Source of the DNA: an uncultured Cellvibrionaceae bacterium
Lineage (GTDB): Bacteria > Pseudomonadota > Gammaproteobacteria > Pseudomonadales > Cellvibrionaceae
Direction: 5' to 3'
Assembly: GCA_964581625.1 (NCBI GenBank)
Contig: CAZOPE010000013.1
Span: forward strand, 1,833-65,832
DNA length: 64,000 bases
A program made the position numbers and the translations under genes. The notes under the pieces are model-generated. The model searched no databases. It saw only the letters and a list, made by a program, of their open reading frames with translations, and was not told where the DNA came from. Positions 4,056 through 50,250 of this stretch are shown here, in pieces; position 1 is the stretch's first letter; every line of letters starts with the position of its first letter.

Positions 4056-4056
4056 T

Positions 4057-10766: not shown

Positions 10767-10913
10767 CTTTTTGAGCCTCACGCCAATTAATACAACATTA
10801 ATAATGTCAAATTAAATTGCAACAGGATTAGCTTGAGAAAGGTAACTTCTTACAAAAAGCAAACCCCATTTTCCAAGACGTATTAGGTTGCTCCGTTAAA
10901 CATAGGCGCAAAT

Positions 10914-10940
10914 AAAAATCCGGCACAAGGCCGGACTTTT
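10914..10940 (-). terminator. Rho-independent terminator after acrB
   Basis: TCCGGC-acaag-GCCGGA stem flanked by A- and T-tracts. Confidence 0.75.
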
Positions 10941-10965
10941 ATTTTCTCACTTATTTCTTCTGCTT

Positions 10966-13900
10966 TTATTCTGCTGGCTTTTTGGGAAACCAGCGCTGCG
11001 CAAACTGAAACACCACGACAAAGAAAACAGGCACGAAGAAGATAGCAAGTACAGTTGCCGACAACATTCCCCCGAACACACCGGTGCCAATGGCGTTTTG
11101 GCTGCCTGACCCCGCGCCGGTGCTAATTACCAGCGGCGTTACGCCCAGCATAAAGGCGAGCGAGGTCATAATGATGGGGCGCAAGCGCATGCGCACGGCA
11201 TCCATAGTCGCATCAAACAAACTCATGCCTTGTTCATGCAATGATTTGGCAAACTCTACAATTAAAATTGCGTTTTTGGATGCAAGGCCAATGGTCGTTA
11301 ACAGCCCCACTTGGAAATAAACATCGTTGGAGAGGCCGCGGCCTATTGCAAAAAGTACGGCGCCGAGCACGCCGAGCGGAACAACCAACATTACGGCAAA
11401 GGGTACTGACCAACTTTCATAAAGCGCTGCTAAACATAAGAACACCACCAACATCGACACTGCATAAAGCAGCGGCGCTTGGTTGCCGGACTGGCGCTCT
11501 TGAAACGACATGCCCGTCCACTGGTAGCCTACGCCTGCCGGTAATTTCTTAATGATTTCCTCAGCAGCCTGCATTGCATCTCCCGAGCTGACACCGGGTG
11601 CGCCTTGGCCGTTGATATTGATGGAAGCAACGCCGTTGTAACGCTCTAACCGGGGCGACCCGAAAATCCAGCGGCCTGTAGTAAAAGCGGAGAACGGCAC
11701 CATCTCGCCTTTATTGTTACGCGCGTACCAGTTGCTAACATCTTCCGGCAGCATGCGAAATTGAGCATCGCCTTGCACGAACACCTTTTTCACTCGCCCC
11801 CGGTCAATAAAATCATTCACATAAGATGCCGCCCAAGCCGTATTGAAAAGACTATTGATGTCGCTGAGCGAAACGCCTAAAGCGGCTGCCTTTTCTTGAT
11901 TCACATCCAGCTTGAATTGCGGCGTATCGTCTTGGCCGTTAGGGCGAACATTAACAAGACGCGAATCTTTCGAGGCCATACCTATGAATTGGTTGCGCGC
12001 TTCAATCATTGCTTCGTGACCAAGGCCACCGAGATCTTGTAATTGCAAATTGAAACCCGTTGATGTTCCTAATTGAGTAATTGCAGGGGGCACAAAGGGG
12101 AACACCATGGCTTCTTTGATTTTGGAGAAGGTGCCCATGGCGCGCTTAGCAACACTTTGAACATCTTGCCCAGAATGCGTACGCTCACTCCAATCTTTTA
12201 AGCTGACAAACGCAATGCCATTATTTTGGCCGCGGCCACTAAAGCTAAAACCTATGACTGAGAACACAGAACGAATGTTGTCTTTTTCTGTTTCCAAATA
12301 ATGTTTTTCAATTTGATTCATCACTTCAATAGAACGCTCTTTAGTAGCGCCAACTGGCAGTGACATTTGTGTATACATGTAGCCTTGGTCTTCGTCCGGT
12401 AAAAACGATGAGGGCAAGCGCGTAAACAGCAACCCCAGTACAACCACAATCGCAACGTAAATCATCATAAAGCGGCTGGTGCGACCAAGCATGGTGCGCA
12501 CGCTGGATTGGTAACGCGTTGTGGCTTTATTGAAATTGCGATTAAACCAACCGAAGAAACCTTTTTTCTCATAGTGATCGTGATCAACAGGCTTTAGCAA
12601 CGTGGCACAAAGTGCAGGTGTGAGCGTTAAAGCCACGATAACGGACAACAACATGGCTGACACAATAGTGATTGAGAATTGACGATAGATAACACCGGTT
12701 GAACCACCAAAAAATGCCATGGGCACAAACACAGCAGCTAACACTAACGCAATGCCAATTAATGCACTGGTAATTTGCCCCATGGATTTTCGCGTGGCTT
12801 CACGCGGAGACAACCCCTCCTCCGCCATTACCCGCTCGACGTTTTCAACCACCACAATGGCATCGTCCACTAGCAAGCCAATGGCCAACACCATGGCAAA
12901 CATGGTAAGCGTATTAATGGAAAATCCACACACCGATAGCACACCAAAAGTACCTAACAACACAATCGGTACAGCAATTGTTGGAATTAAGGTTGCGCGG
13001 AAATTTTGCAGGAATAAATACATTACCAAAAATACAAGGATGATCGCTTCAATCAGTGTTTCAACCACAGCTTTAATGGAAAGGCGAACAAAAGGCGTGG
13101 TGTCCATGGGATAAACCACTTCCATTCCCTGCGGAAAAAATTGCGAGAGTTCCGTGATACGCGCGCGTACTGCATCGGCAGTTTCCAAGGCGTTTGCACC
13201 AGCAGCGAGGGTAATTGCCATACCGGTTGCCGGGCGATTGTTGTACTCGGTTTCGAATTGATAATTCTCACCACCTAGCTCCACCCGCGCGACATCGCCC
13301 AACCGAATTTGCGAGCCATCGTTATTCACGCGCAACAAAATATTTTTAAATTGCTCAGGCGTGGACAAGCGCGTTTGCACCACAATACTCGCGTTTACTT
13401 GCTGACCGGGAAGCGATGGTGTGCCGCCTAATTCGCCCGCGGCAATTTGCGCGTTTTGTGCTTTGATCGCGGCGGTAACATCGGTTGCGGTTAAATTAAA
13501 GGTGGCGAGTTTGTTTGCATCCAACCACACGCGCATGGCGTATTGCGAACCAAACAAGGTGATTTGCCCAACCCCATTTACGCGGCTGAGTTGGTCTTGC
13601 ACGTTGGCGGCAACGTAATCGGCAATGTCGTATTTATCCATACGTCCATCGGCAGATACAAAACCAATAATCAACAAAAAGCCCGCTGACGATTTAGTCA
13701 CGCGAATACCTTGCTGCTGGACTTCTTGTGGCAACAACGGCATTACGGTTTGTAATTTATTTTGCACTTGAACTTGTGCAATGTCGGGGTTGGTTCCCGC
13801 CAAAAAAGTTAGCGTCACACTACCCGACCCGCTGGATTCACTGGCAGACGACATGTATTGAACATTGTCGATTCCCGTTAAACCCTGCTCGATAATTTGA

Positions 13901-35605: not shown

Positions 35606-36817
35606 ATGACTTCAGACTCCTCCCAATTATCCCGTATTTCAAGTGGGGAATTCACCCTGCTGGTGGCGCTGCTCATGTCGATTGTCGCCATTTCCATTGA
35701 CGCCCTGCTGCCCGCACTCGGTGTTATCCCTCAGGACATTCCACTCGCTTACCCTAATCAGGCGCAGCTCATTATTAGCGCGCTTTTTTTGGGTATGGCC
35801 ATAGGCCAATTGGTTTGCGGCCCCATGTCAGATGCAACTGGCCGTAAGAAAGTCTTGTACAGCGGCATTTTGCTCTTTTTGATCGGCAGCGCTTTATGTT
35901 TTTTTGCGCAAGACATTAATACTTTGCTGATCGGTCGCTTTATTCAAGGGCTCGGGGTATCAGGCCCCTATGTATCCGCTATTTCCATTGTGCGCGACAA
36001 ATACGCTGGCCGCGAGATGGCAAAGGTAATGTCACTCGTGATGATGATTTTTATTTTGGTACCTGCGATTGCGCCCAGCCTAGGCCAATCAATTTTGTTG
36101 ATTGCATCTTGGCGCTACGTGTTTGTACTTTACATTGCCTACGCTGTAACTATTGGCCTTTGGATTTTTCTACGATTAGAGGAAACACTGCCGGTGGAGA
36201 ACCGCATTCCGTTAAGCGCAAGGGGTTTTTACGACGGTTTTAAGGAAGTGATCTGCAACCGCGTCACCATGGGCTACACCCTGTGCATGGGCCTGTTTTT
36301 TGGCAGTTTTATCGGCTACTTGAATTCATCGCAACAAATTTTCCAAGGGCTGTTCCACACGGGCAAACTGTTTACCGTGTACTTTGGGGTATTGGCACTG
36401 GTGTTTGGTATTTCATCACTCGTCAACTCGCGCTTCGTTGAAAAATGGGGAATGCACTTTATTAGTTTGCGCGCTGTGCTAGGGGTTGTTATTAGCTCCG
36501 CCTGCTTTTTAGCGCTGCATGCGGTGTGTGAGATTCAGCTGTGGATGTTCATGACCTATATTGCTTTGTTGTTTTTCGCTTTCGGGCTTATCTTCGGCAA
36601 TGTGAATGCAATGGCCATGGAGCCTATGGGCCATGTCGCTGGCATCGCATCCGCGGTTATAGGTTCAGTGTCATCGATTCTTTCCATGGTGATAGGCACT
36701 TTTATTGGCCAGATGTACAACAACACCCTCATCCCTATGACAGTCGGCTTCCTCACCATGACGAGTTTGGCCTTAGTAACCATGAAAATAGCAGACAACA
36801 ATAAGCCAACAAGTTGA
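35606..36817 (+). CDS. Bcr/CflA-family MFS drug-resistance transporter
   Basis: SIDALLPAL, GPMSDATGRKK, IVRDKYAGREMAK, APSLG; ~12 TMs. Confidence 0.9.
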   Translation: MTSDSSQLSRISSGEFTLLVALLMSIVAISIDALLPALGVIPQDIPLAYPNQAQLIISALFLGMAIGQLVCGPMSDATGRKKVLYSGILLFLIGSALCFFAQDINTLLIGRFIQGLGVSGPYVSAISIVRDKYAGREMAKVMSLVMMIFILVPAIAPSLGQSILLIASWRYVFVLYIAYAVTIGLWIFLRLEETLPVENRIPLSARGFYDGFKEVICNRVTMGYTLCMGLFFGSFIGYLNSSQQIFQGLFHTGKLFTVYFGVLALVFGISSLVNSRFVEKWGMHFISLRAVLGVVISSACFLALHAVCEIQLWMFMTYIALLFFAFGLIFGNVNAMAMEPMGHVAGIASAVIGSVSSILSMVIGTFIGQMYNNTLIPMTVGFLTMTSLALVTMKIADNNKPTS

Positions 36818-36867
36818 CCCCCCCCCCATCGCCAACCTGACTGGCTCGACTGCAAGTCAGGTTGGCG
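36818..36867. repeat. C10 tract plus 13-bp stem-loop directly after the MFS stop codon
   Basis: C-run 36818-36827; CGCCAACCTGACT (36830-42) / AGTCAGGTTGGCG (36855-67). Confidence 0.6.
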
Positions 36868-37117
36868 CGGTAACACTCCCCCCTCTTGTTTCCCTGTATG
36901 TGGGAACTTCCGAAACTCTAAACTGGTCTTAAGAGCTTGTTTACACAAACACAGTCACACAGCTGGAAAAGATACAGACACCAAACTCAACTCACCTATA
37001 CAATGCCGGCATAAACTGCGCTGGCAAAATTGATGTTTGAGCCAAGCGCCCCATAATAAATTCGACCCAAATGCCGATTTACCCGGCATTGCTTTTCCGC
37101 GATAACAAGGTGATTTC

Positions 37118-38038
37118 ATGAGAAACATTATTGTTCCTCAGCTTTTCAAATGCCTTTCCTGGTTACCTCTAAATGGCGCACGTGCGTTGGGCGTGATGAT
37201 CGGCCACTGTATGTGGTTTACCCGTAGCCGTAGCCGCCGGATTACACTTAAAAATATCCGCGCCTGCTTCCCGCAACTTTCGGTGGAAGAAGTCAACAAA
37301 CTAGCACACCAAAGTCTTATTGAAACCGCAAAAACGGCTGCTGAAGTGAGCCTGATTTGGCGCCGCTCTTGGTCTTGGCTTGATTCCAAGATCGTCGCAG
37401 TGGAAGGTGAGGATCTCCTTCGCGCCGAGCTCGCGAAAGGCCAAGGGCTGATTGTATTAGCGCCTCATCTGGGCAATTGGGAGGTCGTCGCGCCCTACCT
37501 TGCGAGCATCGCCCCGCTTACCGCTATGTATCAACCGCTTGCAATACCCGCCATGGACAAAATCATTTTGGCGGGCCGCAGTAAAACTAACATCAATATG
37601 GCACCCACCAATCGCAAAGGTGTGGCGATGCTCTTAAAAACCTTACAGCAAGGCAATATTGTCGGCATCCTACCTGATCAATTACCCAAAAAAGATGCCG
37701 GCGCCGAAATGGCCCCATTTTTTGGGCAAGAAACACTGACCATGAGCCTTGTACATTCGCTCATAAGCCGAACCCAAGCACGCGCTGTAGCCGTTTTTGC
37801 CATGCGAGTACCTCGCGGCTTTAAAATGATTGTGTTACCTGCTGATGAAGCCATCTATGGTGACGATCCGGTCATATCTGTTCGCGGCCTAAACGCCAGC
37901 GTGGAGAGCTGCGTTCGTTTGGCGCCCTCGCAGTACCAATGGGAATACAACCGCTTTCGCCTCCCTAAATCCCACCAAATCGCTCTTGAACAAAAGCGCA
38001 ATTTATTTGCGTGTAAATCCTGTGACACCAAACCATAA
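37118..38038 (+). CDS. Lipid A late acyltransferase family (LpxL/HtrB-like)
   Basis: PHLGNWE (HX4E/D), ILPDQ, FFG, PSQYQWEYNRFR. Confidence 0.85.
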   Translation: MRNIIVPQLFKCLSWLPLNGARALGVMIGHCMWFTRSRSRRITLKNIRACFPQLSVEEVNKLAHQSLIETAKTAAEVSLIWRRSWSWLDSKIVAVEGEDLLRAELAKGQGLIVLAPHLGNWEVVAPYLASIAPLTAMYQPLAIPAMDKIILAGRSKTNINMAPTNRKGVAMLLKTLQQGNIVGILPDQLPKKDAGAEMAPFFGQETLTMSLVHSLISRTQARAVAVFAMRVPRGFKMIVLPADEAIYGDDPVISVRGLNASVESCVRLAPSQYQWEYNRFRLPKSHQIALEQKRNLFACKSCDTKP

Positions 38039-38163: not shown

Positions 38164-38179
38164 TGTGACACAATTCACA
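38164..38179. promoter_or_regulatory. CRP/Vfr consensus site
   Basis: TGTGA-cacaat-TCACA, perfect core, 43 bp upstream of the ThDP-enzyme ATG. Confidence 0.7.
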
Positions 38180-38221
38180 CTTAATGCGTGACGGATCACT
38201 TTTACGGTAAGGCTCCAGATA

Positions 38222-40018
38222 ATGCTAAACGTTGTTCCCACTGCAGCGTCACAGGATTCAGCAGACGCAACCACGGAAAAAAAATACCAAGATACTTACG
38301 CCGATTTGATTGTCGATTATCTTGCCCAAATGGGTATTGATCTGGTTTTTGGCGTTCCCGGTGGCGCCATTGAACCGCTATTGAATTCTCTCGCGCGTAG
38401 CGAGCGCAAAGGCGGCCCTCGTTTGATCGTGGCTCGCCATGAATGCGGCGCAGCATTTATGGCCGACGGCTATTATCGCGAAACCGGTAAAATGGGTGTG
38501 GTTTGCAGTACTACGGGCCCTGGAGCCACCAACTTGCTCACCGGCGTAGCCTCTGCCGTGGCAGACGAAATCCCCATGCTGGTAATTACTGCGCAAACGC
38601 CACTTCCAAAATTCGGCAAACGTGCGCTACAAGAATCTAGCTGTACAGCAATAGATACCGTTGGCATCTTTCGCTACGTTACCCAGTTCAACACATTGGT
38701 GTCACACCACGAACAGCTGGAAAGTAAGCTTGTTTCGGCAATCATGGCCGCACATCGCAAACCGCACGGGCCGGCTCACATCAGCATTCCATCTGATATC
38801 TTGCGCGCGCCAGCAAATATAAATGCTCATATTCACAGCGATCTGTTAATTCACGATTTTTCAATGTCTGATGCGCAATCCATCGCACGACTTTGCGAAA
38901 AATTGGCTCGCGTAGATAACATCGTTCTTTATATAGGGAATGGTGTTGGCAAGGCGAGCATGCAAATCATGGAGTTTATAAACCTAACCGGCGCCAATTT
39001 CGTTACCAGCCCAACGGGCAAAGGTTGGGTGGACGAGAATCACCCCCTCTACCGCGGTGTTTACGGCTTTGCTGGCCACGAGAGCGCGACCGCCCTATTG
39101 CAAGACCCAAACTTGGATTTAATTTTGGCCGTGGGGACAGACCTAGGTGAATTGGGCACCAGCGGCTGGAAGGGTGACTTGTTAAATACCAAATTAGTTC
39201 ATATAGATTCCTCTATCGAACACTTTACGCGCTCACCTATGGCCAACCTCCATGTGTTCGGAAATATTGACGTGATCTTCGAACAATTGCTTATCAACGT
39301 TCGCGATTCGCGCAAATGGGGCAAGACCTGGGAAACCTTGCATCCCGTATCCGAACGCAACATAAATGGCGGCTATGCCACGCTGCTTGAAACGGGCAAA
39401 TGCTTTTCCAATGACAGCCCTGTCAAACCACAGCGTTTAATGAACCATTTGTCACAACAACTCCCGGAAGAAACACGCATCTTCATCGACGCAGGCAACA
39501 GCTGGTCTTGGGCTACCCACTACCTTACACGTGCCAATAACGAAGGGCTTTACCGAATCGCCATGGGATACGGTTCTATGGCTTGGGCTATTGGGGCGTC
39601 CATAGGCTCCGCTATGGGAAATCGTGAAGCACCAACCTTATGCATTGTGGGGGATGGCTCTTACCTCATGAGCGCTCAAGAAATTACGGTTGCAGCACAA
39701 CATCAACTTCCCGTTGTATTCCTTGTCCTCAACGACTCCGTCATGGGCATGGTGATGCATGGGCAACGCTTGGGTAATCAAGAATCCATCGGCTGGGAAC
39801 TCAATACCATCAACTACGCTGCGCTTGCGCAGGCGATGGGAATTGACGGGATTGTGATAGAAACACCGGAGGCGCTAGATAAGCTAGATATAGAAAGCCT
39901 TTTTTACAAAAACGGCCCCACGCTTATTGATGTAAGAATCGACCGCGAAGAAGTGCCCCCCATGAGTGATCGAATTAAAGGATTGGCAATCAATGGCTCG
40001 GCAACACCCGGCGGTTAA
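38222..40018 (+). CDS. Thiamine-diphosphate-dependent enzyme (acetolactate-synthase-like)
   Basis: FGVPGG, RHECGAAFMADGY, TTGPGATN, ThDP motif GDGSYLM...LND; no adjacent ilvH/ilvN. Confidence 0.9.
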   Translation: MLNVVPTAASQDSADATTEKKYQDTYADLIVDYLAQMGIDLVFGVPGGAIEPLLNSLARSERKGGPRLIVARHECGAAFMADGYYRETGKMGVVCSTTGPGATNLLTGVASAVADEIPMLVITAQTPLPKFGKRALQESSCTAIDTVGIFRYVTQFNTLVSHHEQLESKLVSAIMAAHRKPHGPAHISIPSDILRAPANINAHIHSDLLIHDFSMSDAQSIARLCEKLARVDNIVLYIGNGVGKASMQIMEFINLTGANFVTSPTGKGWVDENHPLYRGVYGFAGHESATALLQDPNLDLILAVGTDLGELGTSGWKGDLLNTKLVHIDSSIEHFTRSPMANLHVFGNIDVIFEQLLINVRDSRKWGKTWETLHPVSERNINGGYATLLETGKCFSNDSPVKPQRLMNHLSQQLPEETRIFIDAGNSWSWATHYLTRANNEGLYRIAMGYGSMAWAIGASIGSAMGNREAPTLCIVGDGSYLMSAQEITVAAQHQLPVVFLVLNDSVMGMVMHGQRLGNQESIGWELNTINYAALAQAMGIDGIVIETPEALDKLDIESLFYKNGPTLIDVRIDREEVPPMSDRIKGLAINGSATPGG

Positions 40019-40155
40019 CGGATACCGTTGAGGCTTGTGGTCGTTCAATAATCATATAGTTCATTAAAAGCAATCTGATATTCACTTTTTACACTTCAAA
40101 AATGGCGTCAGTGTGCTTATTAAGCTAGCATGAACTCTAACTTGGAGAGCCATGC

Positions 40156-42681
40156 GTGTTATCAAATACTAACAAGACTATTCCATCCGCCGCGTCCACC
40201 CGTATTCTGGTTGTAAACAGCGACTCGGCGGCACAACAAAAAATCAGGGGTTGTCTGGTATCGTCTGGCTATGGTCAATTCACCATTGTTGATGACGCGC
40301 AAAATGCTCTGCGCTTTTTACGTAGTCATCCCGTCGATTTAATCATTGTTGATATTGATATTCCCGATCTCGATGGCTGGCGGCTGTCACGACTTATCCG
40401 TAGCGGCATTCTCAAATGCCGATCTGACCTTCCGATTATTATTCTCGCTAAAACCTGGTGTGAACGTATTGCCGAGGTCACAGCGCGTGAATACGGCATC
40501 AACTATTTGCTTCCGCTCAACCACCTGAGCAATTTGACAGAGATTATTCAGAACCTTACCCAGCAAACCAGCCAAGAACCGCCGAAACCACGTTTATTGG
40601 TGGTTGAAGATTCACCGGACACCTCTGATTTAATTCAACGTGTACTCACCACACATTTCGACATAGAAGTCGCTGCCGATGGCGCATTGGGTTTAGCCAT
40701 TTGGCAGGAAAAACGCCACGATTTGGTGTTGCTAGATGTTGCCTTACCCACCATGAACGGCCACGATATCTTGCTTGAAATCACCCGTATTGATCCCAGC
40801 CAACCCGTGGTGATCATGACAGCTCACGCGTCTATTGAGCATGCAGAAGAATTAATGCTTTCTGGTGCGGTAGATTTTCTACCCAAACCTTTCCGCGCCG
40901 AACAACTGCGCAAAGTATGCGACATTGCAATTCATCGCGAAGATTACCTCGTCAGTAACGCACAATTTGCTGAACGCGTAAAAACACTCGAAGCGCGTGA
41001 GCGGGAGTTTCGTCACCTCTACGAAAGTCATCATCAATTGTTGGATGATCTTCAATCGGTTGTGATGGAGCTAGATGAAGATTTAAACATTGCATTTTTG
41101 AACCGCACATGGGAAACCTTAATGGGGTTCCCCATCGAAGACTCTATTGGTCGTCCGTTCGAGGACTTCATCTCACCGGAAGATGCAAGTCAATTTGCCA
41201 ACCTCAAAGAACACATTACGGCGGCAATTCACGAAAAGAAAACCAGTACCGAAATTGAACTTTGCTTGCGCGACGTAAATCACCAAAAGATTTGGACGCA
41301 GCTGAAAATTAGCCACTCCACCCGCAGCGAAGAGTTTTCAACACTCACCGTATGCATGGATAACATTACCGAACGGCGCAAATCGCAAGAACAATTGCAG
41401 TATCTAGCGATGCACGATTCTTTAACGGGTTTATATAATCGCCACCATTTCGAATTAACGCTAGAGCAACTTTCAAAAGATGCTGCACGCACCAAGCGGC
41501 ACCATGGCTTGGTGTATTTGGATCTCGATCACTTTAAAGTGATTAACGATACTTTCGGCCACCAAAAAGGCGACGAAGTTCTGCGCGAAATGTCCGCTAT
41601 GTTAGCGCGCCGTGTACGCAAGCCAGACATTTTGTGTCGCCTTGGCGGAGATGAATTTGCTGTGCTGTTGCGTAATGTAACTGCACAAAGCGCGCAAGAT
41701 TTTGCGCGCGAGATTCAAAAGACAATTGGCGAATTCAGTTTTCAGTTACAAGAACAGCGAATCAACTTAGGTTGCAGTATTGGCGTAACGGTTATTGACG
41801 GCAGTGCGCATACCGCTGAAGAACATTTTATGCGCGCCGACATTGCACTCTATGTCGCCAAAGGCCGCGGCCGCAACCTCATTCATATGTACGATGCAAA
41901 AGACAACGAAAGTGATGAGTTACGCTTGCGTATTAACGTCTCACAAAAAATTCGTAAAGCAATTTCAGAAGATAGGATGGTGCTTTACTTCCAACCGATT
42001 TATGACGTTAACAAAGATAAAATTTCTTACTACGAGTCACTTATTCGCTTACGCGAACCTGACGGCACTATTGTAGGCCCTGCCGAATTTATTCCTGCAC
42101 TGGAAGCCGCTGGTGAAATGCATTTGTTGGACCGTTGGATCATTAAATTAGCGACGCGCACGCTCAAAGATCATCCAGAACTTAACCACATTGCCATCAA
42201 CCTATCCGCTCAAGCGTTTAAAGATGAAACCTTGGTTCCGACTATTTTGGAGAGTTTAAAAAATACCGGTGTAAATGCTAAAAGACTCACGTTCGAACTC
42301 ACCGAGAGTGCAAGTCTGTTTAACTTAGCTATTACGCAGCGTGTAATTGCAGAATTGCACCTTCTAGGTTGCAGCTTCTCTGTAGATGACTTTGGCTCTG
42401 GCTTTAGCAGCTTCGCTTACCTAAAAGATTTACCCGCCGACTACATCAAACTCGATGGCTCATTTATCCAAAACCTTCACAAAGACAGCATTGACCAAGC
42501 ACTGGTAAAAGCGATGATCCAAGTGATTCAGGCGCTCGGCAAAAAAGCGGTTGCTGAATATGTGGAGAACGAACAGATATTGGATATTTTGAAAAAAATG
42601 GGGATAGATTTTGTTCAAGGCTACCACATAGGCCGCCCTATTCCTGTGGAAAAAATCCTCGCTAAAAAAACAATGGCCTAA
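40156..42681 (+). CDS. REC-REC-PAS-GGDEF-EAL c-di-GMP enzyme
   Basis: Two receivers (DLIIVDID, DLVLLDVA), PAS (AFLNRTWETLMG), AMHDSLTGLYNR, RLGGDEF, YESLIRL, DDFGSGFSS. Confidence 0.92.
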   Translation: MLSNTNKTIPSAASTRILVVNSDSAAQQKIRGCLVSSGYGQFTIVDDAQNALRFLRSHPVDLIIVDIDIPDLDGWRLSRLIRSGILKCRSDLPIIILAKTWCERIAEVTAREYGINYLLPLNHLSNLTEIIQNLTQQTSQEPPKPRLLVVEDSPDTSDLIQRVLTTHFDIEVAADGALGLAIWQEKRHDLVLLDVALPTMNGHDILLEITRIDPSQPVVIMTAHASIEHAEELMLSGAVDFLPKPFRAEQLRKVCDIAIHREDYLVSNAQFAERVKTLEAREREFRHLYESHHQLLDDLQSVVMELDEDLNIAFLNRTWETLMGFPIEDSIGRPFEDFISPEDASQFANLKEHITAAIHEKKTSTEIELCLRDVNHQKIWTQLKISHSTRSEEFSTLTVCMDNITERRKSQEQLQYLAMHDSLTGLYNRHHFELTLEQLSKDAARTKRHHGLVYLDLDHFKVINDTFGHQKGDEVLREMSAMLARRVRKPDILCRLGGDEFAVLLRNVTAQSAQDFAREIQKTIGEFSFQLQEQRINLGCSIGVTVIDGSAHTAEEHFMRADIALYVAKGRGRNLIHMYDAKDNESDELRLRINVSQKIRKAISEDRMVLYFQPIYDVNKDKISYYESLIRLREPDGTIVGPAEFIPALEAAGEMHLLDRWIIKLATRTLKDHPELNHIAINLSAQAFKDETLVPTILESLKNTGVNAKRLTFELTESASLFNLAITQRVIAELHLLGCSFSVDDFGSGFSSFAYLKDLPADYIKLDGSFIQNLHKDSIDQALVKAMIQVIQALGKKAVAEYVENEQILDILKKMGIDFVQGYHIGRPIPVEKILAKKTMA

Positions 42682-42705
42682 CAGGAAACACCCATTAGGC
42701 CATTG
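42671..42705. terminator. Inverted repeat at the convergent junction
   Basis: CAATGGCCTAA / TTAGGCCATTG 11-bp stem overlapping the EAL stop codon. Confidence 0.55.
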
Positions 42706-42734
42706 TAATCAACGCTAAAAATAAACATTCCAAA

Positions 42735-43589
42735 TTAATCTGGCACAGCGCGCAGCGCAGGGCCTTGGTAATCTATATCTTCACAGCGAAGGGGTAAGAA
42801 CGTATTGGGTGGTTGGGCGAATGTGTCCAAATAACAGGCTGTCACACCGCTCGCCACAGCCATGGAAAACATTTGATATACCTCCTGCCCACAAAAGTCA
42901 TAGTCCGAGAGAAATGCAGCGACATATCCATTTATGTTCATTCGTTCGTCGTACTTTTCAAGCAGTACTTTTTCTATCTCATATGCCAAAGCCAAATGCC
43001 TTCCAGCAGATAAATTTAATGACTTGCTAACTCGCTCCATGGCTTCAATTCGCTCATCACCTTTAGCAATTGGACGGATGTAACCAACAATCATAGGCTT
43101 TCCTCCGCGAGAGGATACACTTTTTAAAACATCTTCTACAGACATCCCACTATCAATTTGCTTTAACGCAGCTTGAATAAATCGCATTCCTTCAACGATA
43201 GGAAATATCCCGTAGAAACGAGAGTCGGCGGCGAGCGCTCCCAATGCTGTTGCCGCCATGGCAGATGCACGGGCAGTTCCCGCCAAAGCTCCTATTTGAT
43301 TACACCAGATTCGAGAATCTGGCCAACTAAGACAACCGTATATACCTTCAACCCAAGCGGCCAAATTTTTATCTATCAATTTTCCCGTCGCGTTTAGGAC
43401 GACGATCTGCATATAGGTTTTTTCTCCGACCAACTCTTCCAACATGGAATAGCCATGACTGTACACAGCTTTACCAGGAAACCAGCCACCGGTGTTGCTA
43501 ATAATCTTCCCTCTGCGTTGGTCCAACTTGGCGACAGAATCCATGTCGCTAAAAGTATTTTTATCGTTCGATAACATAGTTTTCATCAC
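42735..43589 (-). CDS. Citrate-synthase/citryl-CoA-lyase-fold protein, non-canonical (B)
   Basis: HGYSMLEELVG, MIVGYIRPIAKGDERI, MNINGYVAAFL align with the CS small-domain motifs. Confidence 0.7.
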   Translation of the reverse strand: MMKTMLSNDKNTFSDMDSVAKLDQRRGKIISNTGGWFPGKAVYSHGYSMLEELVGEKTYMQIVVLNATGKLIDKNLAAWVEGIYGCLSWPDSRIWCNQIGALAGTARASAMAATALGALAADSRFYGIFPIVEGMRFIQAALKQIDSGMSVEDVLKSVSSRGGKPMIVGYIRPIAKGDERIEAMERVSKSLNLSAGRHLALAYEIEKVLLEKYDERMNINGYVAAFLSDYDFCGQEVYQMFSMAVASGVTACYLDTFAQPPNTFLPLRCEDIDYQGPALRAVPD

Positions 43590-44385
43590 TCACAAAGGGC
43601 ATAGCCGTAATAGGTTTATTGGCAACTTCCAAACCGTGAGCCACTAACCCTGGGGCACCAAGCAATTGAAATACAGATGCACCCATACGCGCATGAAAAC
43701 CCAAGTCGGACAATACCGCCGCCACTACTCCCGTCAACAACCACCCGCTACCAGTCTGTTGCAGCTGCTTACTAAGTTGACACCCCCAACGTAAGGCTTT
43801 ACCGGCACCCTCATGTTTTACCAAACGATTTGCAAGCTCAATGGCCATCAATTCTAAGCCACCATTACGGCAACCGAAGCCCGGGGTAAGAGTACTCTCT
43901 TGAGTCAAGTTTTGTGCCTCAGGGGAGTGCCGCAATATTTGCGCAACTTTAGCGGCATCGGAATCTTGATGCTTCCGCAGAAAACGCATGGCATCTTCAA
44001 TTTCACCAGCGCCCATGAAACTTCCACCTAAGACGGCAGATGCTATCGGCAAAATATGCACAGATTCCGTTTTACCAATCCCCGCATTCATTGCAGCCCG
44101 AGTTGCCGGATGTCGAGGCCCTGGATTAATCATCGCAACCATTAATTGTTGCAATAATCCAGATTCCGCCGCGTTAGGTAACTCGCCACGAAACAGTAAA
44201 TAAAACATGTCCGAGTAGCTACGTTTTTCCATTAGCTCAAATAGTTCATAGCCATGGCATAGTGCGGAAGCAGTTATGTAGGGGTTTTCATCGCTAGGTA
44301 ACTCTCGCCAAATACGTGTTGCTGTTCGCGTTACAAAAGGTTCGTTGCGACTACGCACTTTACCCGGCTTGGTTTCTTCACTCAT
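43561..44385 (-). CDS. Citrate-synthase/citryl-CoA-lyase-fold protein, non-canonical (A)
   Basis: CHGYELFELM, YLLFRGELP, INPGPRHPATRAA, TPGFGCR, FQLLGAPGLVAH. Confidence 0.72.
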   Translation of the reverse strand: MSEETKPGKVRSRNEPFVTRTATRIWRELPSDENPYITASALCHGYELFELMEKRSYSDMFYLLFRGELPNAAESGLLQQLMVAMINPGPRHPATRAAMNAGIGKTESVHILPIASAVLGGSFMGAGEIEDAMRFLRKHQDSDAAKVAQILRHSPEAQNLTQESTLTPGFGCRNGGLELMAIELANRLVKHEGAGKALRWGCQLSKQLQQTGSGWLLTGVVAAVLSDLGFHARMGASVFQLLGAPGLVAHGLEVANKPITAMPFVSDENYVIER

Positions 44386-44398
44386 GGTAGGAACTCGA

Positions 44399-46555
44399 TT
44401 ACTTGAAGGCGTAGGTTAAACCCAGCCAAAAACTACGTGATTCTAGAGGATAATCATCAGGAATAGTGCCGCTGCTTGGTTCACGCGCGTCGGCATTTGC
44501 TGCGTTACGGACAGCTAATTGCAAATCCAAATCCGGTAATAAATTTTTCCGGTTTAACGTCAAATTAACTAAGGAGTAATCGCTTATCGGCGGACGCAAA
44601 TCAGTCACGGGGCGCTCGCGATCGCTTATCCAGCCAAACTGACTATTGAGCGACCAATCAGGCGTAATCTGCCAATTAATATTTGCTTTTGCTTGACGCC
44701 CTGGAGCGTCAGCAATTCGCGCATTAGTTTTACTATCAACCGCGTTCTGAAGAGAGTAACTAAACCCAACTTGTAAATATTGAGCAGGCCTCCAGTTCAG
44801 CTCCCACTCAAAACCCTCACCATTTTGAGCGTTAGCATTTTGGGCCACCTTAATCTGCGCATTTGAATCGGGGATAAAATCGATCATTTTTTTGGCTTGG
44901 TAAGTAAAAAATGTCAAAGTTGTCTGCAGCTTATCTGTAGGGCGGTAATTAAAAGATAACTCCTCACTATTAATTTGCTCCGGTTGTATATCGGGGTTAC
45001 CTAAGGATACCGGATTATTTTTAAAATGAAGCTCAGAGAATGAGGGGGCCCTAAACGCACTGCCTAAAAGTATCTTGGTTGTCAGCTTTTCAGTAACACC
45101 CCATACGAGCGCAATTCGCGGATTTGTAGTGTCTCCAAAATCAGAATATTTGTCGTAGCGCAGACCAGCAGTTAAATCAAGATCGTTTCGAATACTCCAT
45201 TCGTCCTGCAAAGATAAATAGTTAACGGCTCGGGATTTATCAACCAGAAAAACGTATGCCGTGCCAGTAACGTCTGTCATATACCCGTTTACTACGTTCG
45301 GTAGAGGCACCCCATCTAAAACACCAGGACCAAAATTTTTACTTTCTCGGGGATTCGCACTCTGTAAACGCTTACCAAAATTAAATCGAATACGATGAGA
45401 CTCAAACCCGCTGTAAATTGAAACGAAATCAAATTTGGTGTCTTTTGTTATCCCTCCGGGGCGCCCTTTTAGTCCGTCAGTAAAAAGAACAGCTCCAACA
45501 GGAGTAACAAAATCTACATTACCATCAGCACCAATAGGTACAATCGATCCCGGAGGTGCCAAGGTAAATTGCGCGATTTCATTATAATACATATGGCTTA
45601 GGCGGATGCTATTATCCCAATCAGCATCATTTTTTTGAAAATGGTACGTCATGTCCGCCATCAAAAGATCGCTATCATCTCTGCCGTTCGGGTCCAGCGC
45701 TTGAGCGGCCCCAGCGCCCACCCCGGCATCAGTAGACAACCAGTTCCACAGATTAAACTGAAGACGATCAGTACTAAGCGCCAAATGAGAATCCAAAATT
45801 TGGTAGCGTGTTGACAAAGCTCCGGGAGCAAGCGACACTTTTGTGCCGAATGCCGTATCTAAACTGGATTGGAGATCGGTGTATATTTTGCGGGAAGAAT
45901 CTCCTACGGAATCTTGATAACTCGCGTCGAAAGCAAAAGCAATTCCATTCCATTCCGCTGAAGTTTGTAACCACAATTCACGACTATTAAATGAGCCAGT
46001 GCGGGCACCAATTTTCGTGTGCTTGATTGATCCCGCATCCTTTGTGATGACGTTAACTACACCTGCATAAGCATCGGCGCCATACACTGCAGAACCTGGT
46101 CCACGTATGACCTCAACGCGATCAATATTGGCAACGGGTAATCTAAATAAAGCGGGGCGTCCACCAGAGGAGCTAAATTGCACAGGAACGCCATTCAACA
46201 TCATCAATACTTGCGAATTAAAACCTGTATGAATCCCACGGATGGATTCTACCGAGTCTAATCGGCTGAGCGCCGATAGAGAAATATGCATCCCCGGTAC
46301 CGTCTCCAAAACATCATCAAGCGTACGCGCACCCATAGCTTCAATTTGAGCGGCATAAATAACAGATGCAGTCGCAGGGGCTTTATCGAGAGGGGTGCTA
46401 TTACCCGTGGCGATTGAAATTTGTACTTGGCCTAGTTCGGCGAGGGATAGGTTGTAAACATCTAATGGCGCGGCGGATTTATTCTCCGCTTGGGTTGCAG
46501 CAGAAATAGCGCAGATAAATGCTGAGAGTAGTGCTCGGGCATATGGTGCTTGCAT
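44399..46555 (-). CDS. TonB-dependent receptor
   Basis: Signal peptide, plug IDRVEVIRGPGSAVYGADAYAGVVNVIT, LTAGLRYDKYSDFG, terminal YAFK. Confidence 0.93.
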   Translation of the reverse strand: MQAPYARALLSAFICAISAATQAENKSAAPLDVYNLSLAELGQVQISIATGNSTPLDKAPATASVIYAAQIEAMGARTLDDVLETVPGMHISLSALSRLDSVESIRGIHTGFNSQVLMMLNGVPVQFSSSGGRPALFRLPVANIDRVEVIRGPGSAVYGADAYAGVVNVITKDAGSIKHTKIGARTGSFNSRELWLQTSAEWNGIAFAFDASYQDSVGDSSRKIYTDLQSSLDTAFGTKVSLAPGALSTRYQILDSHLALSTDRLQFNLWNWLSTDAGVGAGAAQALDPNGRDDSDLLMADMTYHFQKNDADWDNSIRLSHMYYNEIAQFTLAPPGSIVPIGADGNVDFVTPVGAVLFTDGLKGRPGGITKDTKFDFVSIYSGFESHRIRFNFGKRLQSANPRESKNFGPGVLDGVPLPNVVNGYMTDVTGTAYVFLVDKSRAVNYLSLQDEWSIRNDLDLTAGLRYDKYSDFGDTTNPRIALVWGVTEKLTTKILLGSAFRAPSFSELHFKNNPVSLGNPDIQPEQINSEELSFNYRPTDKLQTTLTFFTYQAKKMIDFIPDSNAQIKVAQNANAQNGEGFEWELNWRPAQYLQVGFSYSLQNAVDSKTNARIADAPGRQAKANINWQITPDWSLNSQFGWISDRERPVTDLRPPISDYSLVNLTLNRKNLLPDLDLQLAVRNAANADAREPSSGTIPDDYPLESRSFWLGLTYAFK

Positions 46556-46922
46556 AACGACAATCCATAATTTTAGTAAAAATCTTACTCCTGTTTATAT
46601 TTTTACTAAGGTGGTAATTATCTATTGCATCGATATTTACGAATGACCACTGAACGGTGCTGCATCAACAGATTTTTTATGTAAACTTTCTTCGCTAATT
46701 CTGCGCGAAACGCCCCTAAAGATAGCCTACCTTTCGTTGAAAGCAAACAAGTACTTGCTGTAAAACCAAAAAAAATTTATTGAATACAAATAATTACAGT
46801 GTGATGCGGATTTCGATGTACACAAGGGGACGAATTGGCATGCACCTTAAGCAAGGTGCCATACCAATCCTGGGTTCGAAAGGGCCGCAAAGCCCTTAAG
46901 AAGGTTGATATTGAAATGTTAA

Positions 46923-49241
46923 TTATTTGGTCGGAACCAAACGCTGCACGGTTTGCTTTAAAGTCTCACGTTTGATCGGTTTGGTTAAATATTCTTCTGC
47001 TTTTAGGCGGTTTTCAAGTTTGCTATCATCCGTCATCGAAATAATAATAACCGGAATATCTTTTAACACTGGGTCTTCTTTTATTTGTTCAAATAATTGC
47101 CATCCCTTTTTATCCTGCAACAGCAAGTCCAAGGTGATAAGTTGCGGTTTTATTTTCTTCAGCAAACTCAGACCAGATTCCGCGTCATAGGCGGTATGCA
47201 CTAAATAACCGTCACCACGCATAGTACGCGCCATAACATCTAAAAAAGCGGGGTCATCATCAATCATTACGATATGCTTGCCGTTCAATTCCGACGTTTT
47301 TTCGACTTCTTGCGCTTCCTGTTCATTTTCCGCATCGTTTTGACCGAAGCTTGCGTCGGGATCTATAGGCAAAGGAATATCCACAATAAAAGTAGAGCCT
47401 TTACCTAATTGGCTTTCTACTTCAATAGTGCCGCCCATTAACTCGCAAAGCTGGCGCGTAATAGATAACCCCAAACCGCTACCCTGAAATTTCCGCGTGG
47501 TGCTGCTGTCAGCTTGCCGGAAAGGATCGAAGATGTGTTGTTGTTGCTCTGGAGAAATACCGATTCCCGTATCGCTCACGGTAATGTAGATACGATTCGG
47601 CTCGTGATGCGCCTGTAAAGTTACAATCCCACCCGGAGAAAACTTACTCGCATTCCCGAGAAGGTTAATCATCATGTGCAATAATTTTTCAGGATCTGCT
47701 ACCGGCAAAGTGGCACCGTCGTTTACATCAAGCTTTAACTGGGTAGAGTTTTTCTCGAGTAGAGGCTTCACGGTGCCAACAGCGTCGTCCACCAAACTGG
47801 AGAGTTTTACGTCGGTTAGATCCAAACGCATGCGACCAGATTCAATTTTTGCCAAATCCAATACACCGTTAATGAGTTTTAACAAACGCTCGGAATTATT
47901 GATGACCCGAGAAAGATCTTTTATATGAACTTGATCGTCGCTCAACTTTAAATCTTCAATCACCACTTCGGTATAGCCAATAATCGCTTGTAAAGGTGTA
48001 CGTAATTCATGGCTCATAAGGGACAAAAATTCGCCCTTGGCTTGACTTGCATCCTCAGCTTTGCGTTTTGCAATGGCGAGACGATCACGAGCAAACTGCA
48101 AATCCTGCGCGTGAGCAGCCAGCCGCTGGTTATCGCGTTTTTTGGTGTTGTATGCAAACCATACAGTGATTACTAACGCCAAACCAAGAATTACAAGACC
48201 CCACGCATACATGAGCGCCTTTTTCTGGATGCCGACCGTTTCATCCAAGCTGGCAATGGCATCTTTTTGTTTTTTGAGCTCAACTTCCTGATTCTTAATG
48301 GTCCAATCCAATTCAAGTACACGTTTTTCGCGCGCATCAATTTCACGAACAATTTTGGTCAATTCTTGCTGCTGAGTGTTCAGTTCTTTTGTTCGCTGCT
48401 CCACTTCATTTACCAAGGTCAAGCGCTCCTGCTTGCCTTTTTCCAGCTGTTCATTTTGTGCAGCGATCAAAGCGTCACTTTTCTGAATATCCTTATTTAA
48501 ATCGGACATTTGCTTTTCTAGGCGCGCCGTTAAGGCTTCTTGGTTTTGAATATTTGCTGTCAAATCGGCAAGGGTCTTTTCACGTATTTGCATTTGTTTT
48601 TGCAAATTCACTAATGATGTTTGCCCTTCACGGAATAATTTAGCCACATCAATTTCTGTACCACCGTTTAATATCAATTCTGGGAGCGGCTTCAAACCCT
48701 GATTAATGAGATTTGATTTATTCACTTCAAACCGCAGGCGATCATTTGCTGCAGATAACAGATTAATCATCACAAGTTGTTTGTTGGAAAAATCATAAGT
48801 CACCAAGAGTACTGGCTTACCCTCAACAGCGCTGTATATATCTGTGAGGGTTTGATTGCTAGCATCTTCAACGTATACCAACTGATATTTCCCTAGGGCT
48901 TTTAGTGTGCTCACGTTCGAGACGGTAATGGGTAAATTTCTGACGGTTACTTTTTCAGCTAGTAATTGCAACTCTGAATAGATGGGCGTTTTTTCGGCAC
49001 CGTATACCGCAATATCAAAAGAGTTGATGCCCGATTCATTCGGCCACTCGATATTTTTGGCAAAGTTGTAAATATAAGATGCGGTAATGCGTTGCTTATT
49101 GGCTTGCTGCGCTTGGGCAGAGCTTTCAATGCTCAAGAAAAATAATGCTAGGAGCCAAGCTAGGTAGCGAGAAATGTATGGAGAAGAAAGAATAAAACCC
49201 GAGCAGCGCGAATAATAATTATGCATGTGGCTTTTATACAT
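46923..49241 (-). CDS. Hybrid histidine kinase: YfiR/DUF4154 periplasmic domain, coiled coil, TM, HisKA-HATPase, REC
   Basis: SYIYNFAKNIEWP, RLRFEVNK, LMSHELRTPL, NASKF, DTGIGI, GSGLGL, LITLDLLL. Confidence 0.9.
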   Translation of the reverse strand: MYKSHMHNYYSRCSGFILSSPYISRYLAWLLALFFLSIESSAQAQQANKQRITASYIYNFAKNIEWPNESGINSFDIAVYGAEKTPIYSELQLLAEKVTVRNLPITVSNVSTLKALGKYQLVYVEDASNQTLTDIYSAVEGKPVLLVTYDFSNKQLVMINLLSAANDRLRFEVNKSNLINQGLKPLPELILNGGTEIDVAKLFREGQTSLVNLQKQMQIREKTLADLTANIQNQEALTARLEKQMSDLNKDIQKSDALIAAQNEQLEKGKQERLTLVNEVEQRTKELNTQQQELTKIVREIDAREKRVLELDWTIKNQEVELKKQKDAIASLDETVGIQKKALMYAWGLVILGLALVITVWFAYNTKKRDNQRLAAHAQDLQFARDRLAIAKRKAEDASQAKGEFLSLMSHELRTPLQAIIGYTEVVIEDLKLSDDQVHIKDLSRVINNSERLLKLINGVLDLAKIESGRMRLDLTDVKLSSLVDDAVGTVKPLLEKNSTQLKLDVNDGATLPVADPEKLLHMMINLLGNASKFSPGGIVTLQAHHEPNRIYITVSDTGIGISPEQQQHIFDPFRQADSSTTRKFQGSGLGLSITRQLCELMGGTIEVESQLGKGSTFIVDIPLPIDPDASFGQNDAENEQEAQEVEKTSELNGKHIVMIDDDPAFLDVMARTMRGDGYLVHTAYDAESGLSLLKKIKPQLITLDLLLQDKKGWQLFEQIKEDPVLKDIPVIIISMTDDSKLENRLKAEEYLTKPIKRETLKQTVQRLVPTK

Positions 49242-49335: not shown

Positions 49336-50250
49336 CTATAAAATTGGCTCAACGGGATCAACGTGTGTCATAACATCCAGCACAGGCATACTTTCCATAA
49401 CACGCTCACGAGCTTTAACAGCAATGTCGTGACCTTCAGCGACCGTCATATCGCCCAATATTTCCAAATGAACATCCACAATAATCAAATCACCGGTTTT
49501 GCGGGTACGCAAGTCGTGCAAACCCTGAACACCAGGAGTAGCCAATATAATTGCGCGAATTTTTTCAATTTCCTCCAAGTCGGCTGCGCGATCCATCAAA
49601 TCATTAAGTGAATTCCAGGCGAACCCCCACCCCATTTTTATAACCATCAAGCCCACTACTAAGGCTGCGATAGGATCAAGCAAGGTAAAACCTAACAAGT
49701 TACCACCAATGCCTAAAGCTACAACAAATGAAGAGGCAGCATCGGAACGTGCGTGCCATGCGTTGGCAATCAATAAAGTGGAACGAAGGCGCTGCCCAAC
49801 CGCAAACATGTAGCGGAATAACAATTCTTTAACAACTAACGCAACCAAAGCCACCCACAAAGCAATCATATGAACTGGAGCAATTACCGAGGGATCTGCC
49901 AATTTGTGCACCGCAGCCCACAACATGCTCACACCTACGGCGAGCAACAACATGCCCAGCACCAAAGACGCTGCATTTTCGTAGCGATAATGGCCATAGT
50001 GATGGTCTTCATCCGGACCTGCTTTGCTGTGGTGGCCCGCAAACAACACCACAAAATCTGAGACCAAATCTGATAACGAATGAATGCCATCTGCAATAAG
50101 CGCTTGTGAGCTTGCAAAAATACCCACAACAATTTGCAAAGCACTTAGCACAATATTGATCACCACACTTATCCAAGTGCAGCGCTGAGCTGCGCGGTGG
50201 TTTTCCACCGCACCGTTTTCTGATGTAGGGTTTAAATTAACAGGTTTCAT
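49336..50250 (-). CDS. Cation diffusion facilitator (FieF-like)
   Basis: ALIADGIHSLSD, HHYGHYRYE, NAWHARSDA, VDVHLEI. Confidence 0.92.
   Translation of the reverse strand: MKPVNLNPTSENGAVENHRAAQRCTWISVVINIVLSALQIVVGIFASSQALIADGIHSLSDLVSDFVVLFAGHHSKAGPDEDHHYGHYRYENAASLVLGMLLLAVGVSMLWAAVHKLADPSVIAPVHMIALWVALVALVVKELLFRYMFAVGQRLRSTLLIANAWHARSDAASSFVVALGIGGNLLGFTLLDPIAALVVGLMVIKMGWGFAWNSLNDLMDRAADLEEIEKIRAIILATPGVQGLHDLRTRKTGDLIIVDVHLEILGDMTVAEGHDIAVKARERVMESMPVLDVMTHVDPVEPIL

Follow-up and report, generated by a model that had tools for sequence, protein, structure and literature searches.

The window analysed here, 64,000 nucleotides of contig CAZOPE010000013.1 from an uncultured Cellvibrionaceae bacterium, contains a real, widely distributed and apparently undescribed conserved functional module. 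It comprises a thiamine diphosphate (ThDP) dependent enzyme, a response regulator with GGDEF and EAL domains for cyclic di-GMP (c-di-GMP), a TonB-dependent receptor (TBDR), two citrate-synthase-like proteins that we call CS-A and CS-B, and a hybrid histidine kinase with a periplasmic YfiR head. The case for the module is carried by the co-conservation of its genes, by fusions between its members, by the folds of the proteins and by the integrity of their domains and motifs. Full-text literature searches did not bring up any paper that describes this combination of genes. As to what the module does, the original prediction for this locus, made without database searches, had proposed a quorum-sensing-like loop in which a self-made molecule is taken up, sensed and converted to a c-di-GMP output. 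That the module makes, recaptures and senses a molecule, possibly in a quorum-like manner, appears plausible to us, and we give it about even credence.

Pfam and NCBIfam profile scans of the open reading frames (ORFs) in the window placed all genes and domains where they had been predicted. On the forward strand, the gene for a ThDP-dependent carboligase-type enzyme (598 aa, 38222-40018) is followed after 137 bp by the gene for a response regulator of 841 aa with REC-REC-PAS-GGDEF-EAL architecture, where REC is a receiver domain (40156-42681). No terminator-like site is seen between the two. On the reverse strand, and convergent with this pair, lie the genes for the hybrid sensor kinase (772 aa, 46923-49241), the TBDR (718 aa, 44399-46555), CS-A (274 aa, 43561-44385) and CS-B (284 aa, 42735-43589). 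The kinase and receptor genes are separated by a spacer of 367 bp, the receptor and CS-A genes by 13 bp, and the CS-A and CS-B genes overlap by 29 bp, the last two values being those originally predicted.

The main evidence for a functional unit is that these genes stay together when their arrangement changes. We scanned one genome per species for relatives of the locus, obtained 201 loci, and examined the best 80. Among these, the carriers comprise Cellvibrionaceae, Hahella, Neptuniibacter, Pseudohongiellaceae, Chromatiales (Thiogranum), Ca. Tenderia, the Gallionellaceae Gallionella, Sideroxydans and Sideroxyarcus, and the Desulfuromonadales Trichloromonas, Geoalkalibacter and Malonomonas. 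The module genes are thus clustered in Gamma- and Betaproteobacteria and in Desulfuromonadales, with shuffled order and swapped sensor types. Some cultured strains are carriers as well, namely Cellvibrio mixtus J3-8, C. fibrivorans BE190, Cellvibrio sp. OA-2007 and Malonomonas rubra DSM 5091. Within Cellvibrio, 19 of 25 genomes encode CS-A, and the whole layout is syntenic in about 17; beyond Cellvibrio, CS-A occurs in 6 of 16 other genera of the order. Other families have single-operon arrangements of different order, such as ThDP>TBDR>CSA>CSB, ThDP>CSA>CSB>TBDR and CSA>CSB>ThDP>TBDR, and most lineages have the ThDP gene next to the GGDEF-EAL gene.

For a quantitative view, all ORFs of 86 loci were clustered. 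The CS pair is present in all 86, a TBDR in 80, the ThDP enzyme in 70, and a GGDEF-EAL protein of one homologous family in 66. Three kinds of periplasmic sensor share one slot, with counts of 35 for the YfiR-kinase, 30 for a PF04392 binding protein, 28 for an sCache_4 kinase and 7 for a stand-alone DUF4154 protein. When counting is confined to the 57 well-flanked loci, those with at least 7 kb of flanking sequence on both sides, the TBDR and a periplasmic sensor of any of the three kinds are each found in 56, the ThDP enzyme in 51 and the GGDEF-EAL protein in 49. One could argue that the genes are functionally unlinked and owe their proximity to common descent within Cellvibrio alone, since the layout within the genus could be plain synteny. 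However, the set of genes reappears in at least three classes, in varied orders and on varied strands, with fusions between members. Together with the counts in the 57 loci, this led us to reject a chance neighbourhood, which we regard as hardly credible. The original prediction had made its circuit depend on co-conservation of the genes, and they do remain clustered across classes and phyla despite rearrangement.

The fusions connect both the enzymes to each other and the sensor to its output. In P0242, a protein of 885 aa, the ThDP enzyme is fused to CS-A; its ThDP part shares 41% identity with the window enzyme (E 1e-153), and the CS part contains the motif LANPGPRDP. CS-A and CS-B are joined in P0136, where CS-B lies behind CS-A, and in P0237. 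On the signalling side, the genome G038 encodes kinase and output as a single polypeptide of 1497 aa with sCache_4-HAMP-HisKA-HATPase-REC-Hpt-REC-GGDEF-EAL architecture, in which Hpt is a histidine phosphotransfer domain. This protein belongs to a variant locus that is described below. A second kinase-output fusion, in the CS-type locus L109, shows this domain order starting with HAMP, without a match to sCache_4.

The sensor slot is filled in a lineage-dependent manner. In Cellvibrionaceae, YfiR is fused to the kinase. Desulfuromonadales, Neptuniibacter and Chromatiales instead have a PF04392 protein together with an sCache_4 kinase. In Gallionellaceae and others, the PF04392 protein or a free YfiR protein stands beside a membrane protein of sCache/CHASE8-HAMP-PAS-GGDEF-EAL type, so that no kinase is needed. 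Cellvibrio species in which other parts of the module were lost still have the kinase and GGDEF-EAL genes side by side. The sensor swaps, the kinase-output fusions and the retained pair are three independent supports for the view that sensing in the periplasm has c-di-GMP as its conserved output, as judged from gene content and domain architecture. The predicted circuit is therefore upheld in its genetic linkage and in the flow of the signal to c-di-GMP. It is weakened by the persistence of the signalling pair without the enzymes.

The kinase of the window starts with a signal peptide and a YfiR/DUF4154 head (residues ~49-191, PF13689, 91 bits), followed by a transmembrane segment (343-365), HisKA and HATPase domains and a C-terminal receiver (657-765). 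The phosphoacceptor histidine lies in an SHELRTP box, and the H-box lies at ~402-481 in 35/35 homologues. An AlphaFold2 (AF2) model built on 14 orthologues has a continuous helix from residue 202 to 399, with pLDDT 81-89, which includes the transmembrane segment. The periplasmic part of this predicted helix (202-342, ~141 residues) would measure ~21 nm and would be long enough to hold the YfiR head near the outer membrane. A YfiR head on such a helix would make a simple system in which to study the passage of a signal from near the outer membrane to a cytoplasmic kinase.

Several orthologous YfiR-kinases, those of G003, G016, G021 and L036, lack the C-terminal receiver and end at about residue 650. 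The kinase's own receiver thus appears to be dispensable in nature, and a direct His-to-Asp phosphotransfer from the kinase to the GGDEF-EAL protein is plausible. In G013 (L036, G013:C1), a TAA stop codon of the kinase gene is found at this point, and the kinases of L116 and L117 (G003 and G016) are likewise shorter. The presumed acceptor of the phosphoryl group has a first receiver that looks degenerate by eye and a second that looks canonical. Its RKPD (RxxD) I-site and its GGDEF, ESL, ELTE and DDFGSG motifs are intact, and distant homologues likewise have undamaged GGDEF and EAL motifs.

The genome of the window encodes a second YfiR module, which is not accompanied by a TBDR or by the enzymes (L115, G000:C26, 7910-13588). 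It consists, in this order, of a free DUF4154 protein (190 aa), a CHASE8-HAMP-HisKA-HATPase-REC-Hpt kinase (893 aa) and a REC-PAS-GGDEF-EAL protein (806 aa). Its Hpt domain could in principle serve the window's kinase, which has none of its own.

The TBDR has a plug (82 bits) and a barrel (124 bits) according to Pfam, behind a signal peptide, and the motifs of both domains are conserved in 85 members of the family. No named receptor family was matched over its cut-off. An STN or other N-terminal signalling domain was not matched, and only ~55 residues precede the plug. The receptor gene is tandemly duplicated in the loci L039, L051, L088, L096, L105 and L112.

The ThDP enzyme has the TPP_enzyme_N, M and C domains and resembles acetolactate synthase (ALS), ScyA and BbmA. 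It falls below every curated NCBIfam cut-off. The best score, 309 bits, is reached against the acetohydroxyacid synthase (AHAS) model TIGR00118, which has a cut-off of 538, and a ScyA-related model gives 302 bits against a cut-off of 1000. The closest relatives of solved structure are BbmA (8x3x, 294 bits) and CsmA (8x3z), for which we found no relevant literature on function. The catalytic glutamate (in GGAIEP) and the GDG...ND ThDP motif (GDGSYLM...LND) are retained. Compared with the acetolactate synthase family as a whole (AHAS, catabolic ALS, the ScyA-related enzymes and BbmA/CsmA), the enzyme of the window has the same three-domain architecture, the same catalytic glutamate and the same ThDP-Mg motif, but lacks a small subunit and is instead partnered by CS-fold proteins or, in sibling loci, by a ketoacyl synthase. 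Its gene lies between the genes for an LpxL-like acyltransferase and the GGDEF-EAL protein; neither a gene for an AHAS small subunit nor any other ilv gene is found beside it, as had been noted originally. AHAS large-subunit sequence is encoded on other contigs of the genome, with scores of 748 and 626 bits, over the cut-off. A role as housekeeping AHAS was therefore rejected, on the grounds of the low score, the missing adjacent small subunit and the presence of a true AHAS elsewhere, and the proposal of a ThDP enzyme other than AHAS is borne out. Neither this enzyme nor CS-A or CS-B has a signal peptide, and all three are predicted to be cytoplasmic.

CS-A is recognizable as a relative of citryl-CoA lyase (CCL). 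It matches the CCL structure 6hxp at E 1e-17, and its AF2 model (pLDDT 87) finds 6hxp as the best Foldseek match (E 2.4e-10, TM score 0.68-0.72), followed by the CCL modules of ATP-citrate lyase (ACLY) and by citrate synthases. CS-A, as modelled, thus has the all-alpha fold of citryl-CoA lyase and citrate synthase. CS-B is a distant paralogue of CS-A (hhalign 98.5%, 19% identity). Profile scores are low for both proteins, with 85 bits for CS-A and 54 bits for CS-B (PRK06224) in the citryl-CoA lyase models of NCBIfam, where the cut-offs are 193-261. In Pfam PF00285, CS-A reaches 23.8 bits against a cut-off of 27, and CS-B is not matched.

In pig citrate synthase, which served as the reference, the catalytic triad is H274, H320 and D375. 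According to the alignment with 6hxp, CS-A has replaced the two histidines by glycine and cysteine and the aspartate by threonine, all three positions being variable within the family. A by-eye alignment of CS-B with CCL places tyrosine, isoleucine and asparagine at the triad positions, with only the arginine of the DER motif kept. The weak scores, the CCL fold of CS-A and the substituted triad agree with the label of pseudo-citrate-synthases that the proteins had been given. Both proteins have acquired strongly conserved motifs of their own. In CS-A, NPGPRHPATRAAM, PGFG and APGLLAHG.E..KP.TAMPF are near-invariant, and in CS-B, WPD.RIW.N, YG and GY.RP....DER are invariant. This conservation argues for an active site that has been rebuilt rather than one that has decayed. 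With citrate synthase, 6hxp and the CCL module of ATP-citrate lyase, CS-A and CS-B share the fold, a length of ~270 aa and the GELP signature of a helix. These known enzymes form dimers, as CS-A and CS-B probably do with each other. In contrast to the known enzymes, they have a substituted triad and new invariant motifs in place of the old ones, and they are encoded by an overlapping gene pair that is sometimes fused, either mutually or to the ThDP enzyme. CS-A and CS-B thus define a branch of the citrate synthase fold that is devoid of the textbook catalytic residues, yet strongly conserved and tied to a ThDP enzyme.

In 22 of the 86 loci, a gene for an oxidoreductase of the short-chain dehydrogenase/reductase family (~240-290 aa) is present, often directly after CS-B (L037, L041, L042, L049, L053, L060, L061, L064, L065, L067, L079, L084, L088, L089, L091, L095, L101, L110 and others). 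The locus of the window does not contain it. The oxidoreductase likely catalyzes a tailoring step, such as the reduction or oxidation of an acyloin.

The best available clue to the chemistry of the CS pair comes from loci in which it has been exchanged. The CS pair is missing from two complete Cellvibrio genomes, G003 and G021. These genomes have a sibling locus with a ThDP enzyme that is 73% identical to the one in the window, and there the genes for a sensor-PAS-GGDEF-EAL protein, the ThDP enzyme and a FabH-like ketoacyl-ACP synthase III (KASIII) are convergent with those for a different TBDR and a protein of 304 aa. The latter has no Pfam match and an N-terminus that looks like a signal peptide by eye. 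In G038, which belongs to another family, the order is ThDP > KASIII > TBDR > PF04392 protein > fused kinase-GGDEF-EAL protein, and the TBDR is 37% identical to the one of the window. The three loci are L118 (G003:C6:40000-56000, 2705-11648), L119 (G021) and L122 (G038:C1, 7990-18536), with a KASIII of 321 or 316 aa. Such a KASIII was found in only 3 of 41 genomes, and all three are without the CS pair.

A quick maximum-likelihood tree (IQ-TREE) puts the ThDP enzymes that are linked to KASIII at two separate positions within the clade of the CS-linked ones. That of G003 lies in the Cellvibrio clade (support 100), and that of G038 clusters with L030 and L109 (support 99), where long branches meet. 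The tree suggests that the CS pair was replaced by a FabH-like KASIII at least twice, the second swap, that of G038, being less secure in view of the long branches. The presence of KASIII in the slot of the CS pair points to condensing chemistry with acyl thioesters and favours a biosynthetic role, which gives a concrete hypothesis for what CS-A and CS-B do. A lead in the same direction is provided by carbazole biosynthesis, where the pairs NzsH/NzsJ and CqsB3/CqsB1 combine a ThDP-dependent acyloin synthase, which yields an alpha-hydroxy-beta-keto acid, with a FabH-like enzyme that condenses this product with an acyl thioester. The sibling loci of G003, G021 and G038 have the same pairing of a ThDP enzyme with a KASIII-like protein. 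In contrast to the carbazole pairs, the module lacks the context of cyclase, acyl carrier protein and prenyltransferase, the window has the CS-fold pair as its second enzyme, and the link to a TBDR and c-di-GMP is unique to the module.

The following course of events would account for the gene content. In the cytoplasm, the ThDP enzyme would join units derived from 2-oxoacids to an acyloin or an alpha-hydroxy-beta-keto acid. A heteromer of CS-A and CS-B, associated with the ThDP enzyme, may then carry out a second step, probably a condensation or acyl transfer that depends on an acyl thioester. The product, a derivative or a complex of it would leave the cell, and the dedicated TBDR would return it to the periplasm. 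There, the YfiR head of the kinase, on its predicted helical stalk, would detect the molecule, a step for which the fusions provide some support. In other lineages, the PF04392 protein with its sCache kinase, or a YfiR/CHASE8 pair, would take the place of the YfiR-kinase. Finally, the kinase would set the phosphorylation state of the REC-REC-PAS-GGDEF-EAL protein, perhaps by the direct phosphotransfer considered above, and thereby shift the c-di-GMP level. The genetic architecture is consistent with an autoinducer-type circuit, in which a molecule is produced, released and sensed by the same cell. A bolder claim, which we make only tentatively and consider somewhat doubtful, is that signalling between cells, or self-sensing, takes place here by a system of a new class, with a signal of acyl-acyloin type, novel chemistry of a heteromeric CS-fold branch that is interchangeable with a FabH-like enzyme, gating by a TBDR, readout in the periplasm and c-di-GMP as output. 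If this were true, the module would amount to a chemical language not recognised before, in which uptake is energy-dependent and gated by a receptor and c-di-GMP controls attachment versus motility. It would operate in bacteria as different as degraders of plant polymers, iron-oxidising Gallionellaceae, sulfur oxidisers, metal-reducing Desulfuromonadales and the electroactive Tenderia.

Several observations weigh against a loop of synthesis, recapture and sensing. No exporter is conserved in the module. Pfam detects no Hpt domain in the kinase, in the GGDEF-EAL regulator or in the locus. To our knowledge, the small molecules that cells make themselves and recover through a TBDR are otherwise mainly siderophores, and a scan for Fur boxes upstream of 83 TBDR genes performed no better than on shuffled sequence, so that iron regulation is not supported. 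On the enzymatic side, the characterised relatives of the ThDP enzyme score only ~290-310 bits, and substrates cannot be read off at this distance. Since the His/His/Asp triad is absent from both CS proteins, these could be non-catalytic partners, and CS-A presumably lacks most of the residues that bind oxaloacetate in pig citrate synthase. Finally, the Cellvibrio genome G016 keeps kinase, TBDR and GGDEF-EAL genes (kinase>TBDR<GGDEF-EAL) without the enzymes, and G002, G003 and G021 retain only the kinase and GGDEF-EAL genes at the locus. The signalling pair is therefore not strictly dependent on the enzymes, nor on this TBDR. The Cellvibrio species without the enzymes could be eavesdroppers, or their sensor could have an input that is independent of the enzymes.

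The retention of receptor and sensor in G016 would also fit a different scheme, in which a foreign or environmental compound enters via the TBDR and is reported to c-di-GMP, and the ThDP and CS enzymes degrade, salvage or inactivate it, much as the Lsr enzymes destroy imported AI-2. Receptor genes often sit with catabolic genes, and both the ThDP and the CCL-fold enzymes include lyases. Nevertheless, we consider this scheme unlikely. The compound seems to be made rather than eaten by the cell, because the enzymes are predicted to be cytoplasmic and yet no inner-membrane importer is conserved in the 86 loci, and because the KASIII alternative, from a family of condensing enzymes, points to biosynthesis. 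Moreover, the catalytic residues of CCL that lyase chemistry would require are gone. The hosts also matter: Gallionella, Sideroxydans, Thiogranum and Ca. Tenderia are obligate chemolithoautotrophs, for which biosynthesis fits better than the catabolism of a nutrient. Could the self-made compound then be a metallophore? In this special case of the synthesis and recapture model, a small carboxylate chelator would be taken up by the TBDR as a metal complex, and metal supply would be coupled to c-di-GMP. Siderophores show the same pattern of a compound made by the cell and a TBDR dedicated to it, the CS fold handles polycarboxylates, and many hosts are iron oxidisers or metal reducers. However, Fur boxes are not enriched before the TBDR, and the loci contain no siderophore synthetase of the NIS or nonribosomal peptide (NRPS) type, no periplasmic or inner-membrane genes for metal uptake and no TonB-ExbBD. 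The residues for oxaloacetate or citrate binding are lost in CS-A, and a cation-efflux gene that stands beside the kinase gene is syntenic in a few close relatives only. We therefore judge a metallophore to be very unlikely.

It is also conceivable that no ligand is transported at all, and that a loaded or stressed TBDR engages the stalk-held YfiR head directly, as YfiB does in the YfiBNR system. The enzymes would then have a separate task, for example to supply a cytoplasmic effector for the PAS domain of the GGDEF-EAL protein, and the adjacency of the ThDP and GGDEF-EAL genes in most lineages would be accounted for. The predicted periplasmic helix is long enough to span the periplasm, a true YfiR and CHASE8 (YfiN-type) pair adjoins the TBDR in some lineages, and the locus of the window lacks a YfiB-like lipoprotein: Pfam finds neither a CHASE8 nor an OmpA-like gene between 35.6 and 52.3 kb. 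Against such an envelope relay, many lineages fill the sensor slot with a soluble PF04392 protein and an sCache kinase, the classic layout for a free periplasmic ligand, and the TBDR has no signalling extension. On balance, a relay that dispenses with ligand transport seems quite unlikely.

The module belongs to none of the signalling systems that it most resembles. The Rpf/DSF (diffusible signal factor) system of Xanthomonas, with the signal enzyme RpfF, the kinase RpfC and the REC-HD-GYP protein RpfG, is closest in logic, as it also combines enzymes for signal synthesis with a hybrid kinase and a receiver-bearing c-di-GMP enzyme. However, the enzymes are unrelated (a ThDP enzyme and a CS-fold pair rather than a crotonase), the output protein is of GGDEF-EAL and not of HD-GYP type, a periplasmic YfiR head stands in place of a membrane input domain, and a dedicated TBDR is included. 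The PF04392 protein and sCache_4 kinase of sibling lineages are reminiscent of the binding-protein and hybrid-kinase pairs LuxP-LuxQ and TorT-TorS. They differ in the family of the binding protein and in having an outer-membrane receptor upstream, and the window itself has a YfiR-kinase fusion instead of such a pair. With YfiBNR (TpbB) of P. aeruginosa and HmsCDE of Yersinia, the module shares the periplasmic control of a c-di-GMP enzyme by YfiR/DUF4154 and an outer-membrane partner. In the window, in contrast, YfiR is fused to a histidine kinase via the ~141-residue helix, three enzymes are attached, the outer-membrane partner is a TBDR and not the OmpA-like lipoprotein YfiB, and the output would be reached by the proposed phosphotransfer. 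Cell-surface signalling of the FecA/FpvA type relies on a TBDR with an STN domain and on sigma and anti-sigma genes. The TBDR of the module lacks the former, and no sigma/anti-sigma cluster appears among its conserved neighbours.

Some genes around the module are not part of it. A gene for a transporter of the major facilitator superfamily (Bcr/CflA-type, 35606-36817) and the gene for the LpxL-like acyltransferase lie upstream of the ThDP gene, together spanning 35606-38038 (+). The cation-efflux gene already mentioned, of the cation diffusion facilitator family, is located directly upstream of the kinase gene (49336-50250, -). All three were rejected as module members, since they are syntenic only within Cellvibrio.

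The regulatory signals are partly local and partly conserved. A CRP/Vfr-type palindrome, TGTGAcacaatTCACA (38164-38179, +), lies 42 bp 5' of the ThDP start codon, where a CRP site had been pointed out originally. It is the sole perfect TGTGA-N6-TCACA in the 64-kb window, against an expectation of 0.07. The site, at about -58, recurs only in the closest relatives (L034, L037, L049 and, weakly, L038), and CRP-type sites upstream of ThDP genes were found in 5 of the 71 relatives scanned, all among the closest. The assumed cAMP control, for which the window offers a perfect candidate site, would thus apply to a small subclade only. The palindrome was rejected as a family-wide feature, and from its distribution it is best seen as a local, lineage-specific regulatory layer outside the definition of the module.

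The locus had been described as two convergent blocks. The convergence is real, and between the two sides there is a hairpin with a 16-bp stem that resembles a bidirectional terminator (42670-42706). However, the 367-bp spacer between the kinase and TBDR genes splits the reverse-strand block. A short hairpin identified by eye, AAGGGC-loop-GCCCTT (46880-46897, -), lies ~25 nt past the kinase stop codon and is followed by only three T; it is at best a weak terminator. It precedes a predicted sigma-70-like promoter, TTGCTT-17-TATCTT (46717-46746, -), and an inverted repeat, TTCGC..GCGAA (46691-46710), before the TBDR, CS-A and CS-B genes. From the spacing, the conserved promoter and the hairpins, the locus is therefore best read as about three transcription units and not two: ThDP>GGDEF-EAL, TBDR>CS-A>CS-B, and the kinase alone. 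A search for Rfam families between 36000 and 52500 gave none at E<=1, so that the spacer contains no known riboswitch. The block of promoter and inverted repeat (46691-46746, -) is the only conserved part of the spacer in ~30 Cellvibrio-type loci. The repeat itself differs between species groups, being AGTGC..GTACT elsewhere, while its symmetry is retained, and it could be an operator or a hairpin in the 5' untranslated region of the receptor transcript.

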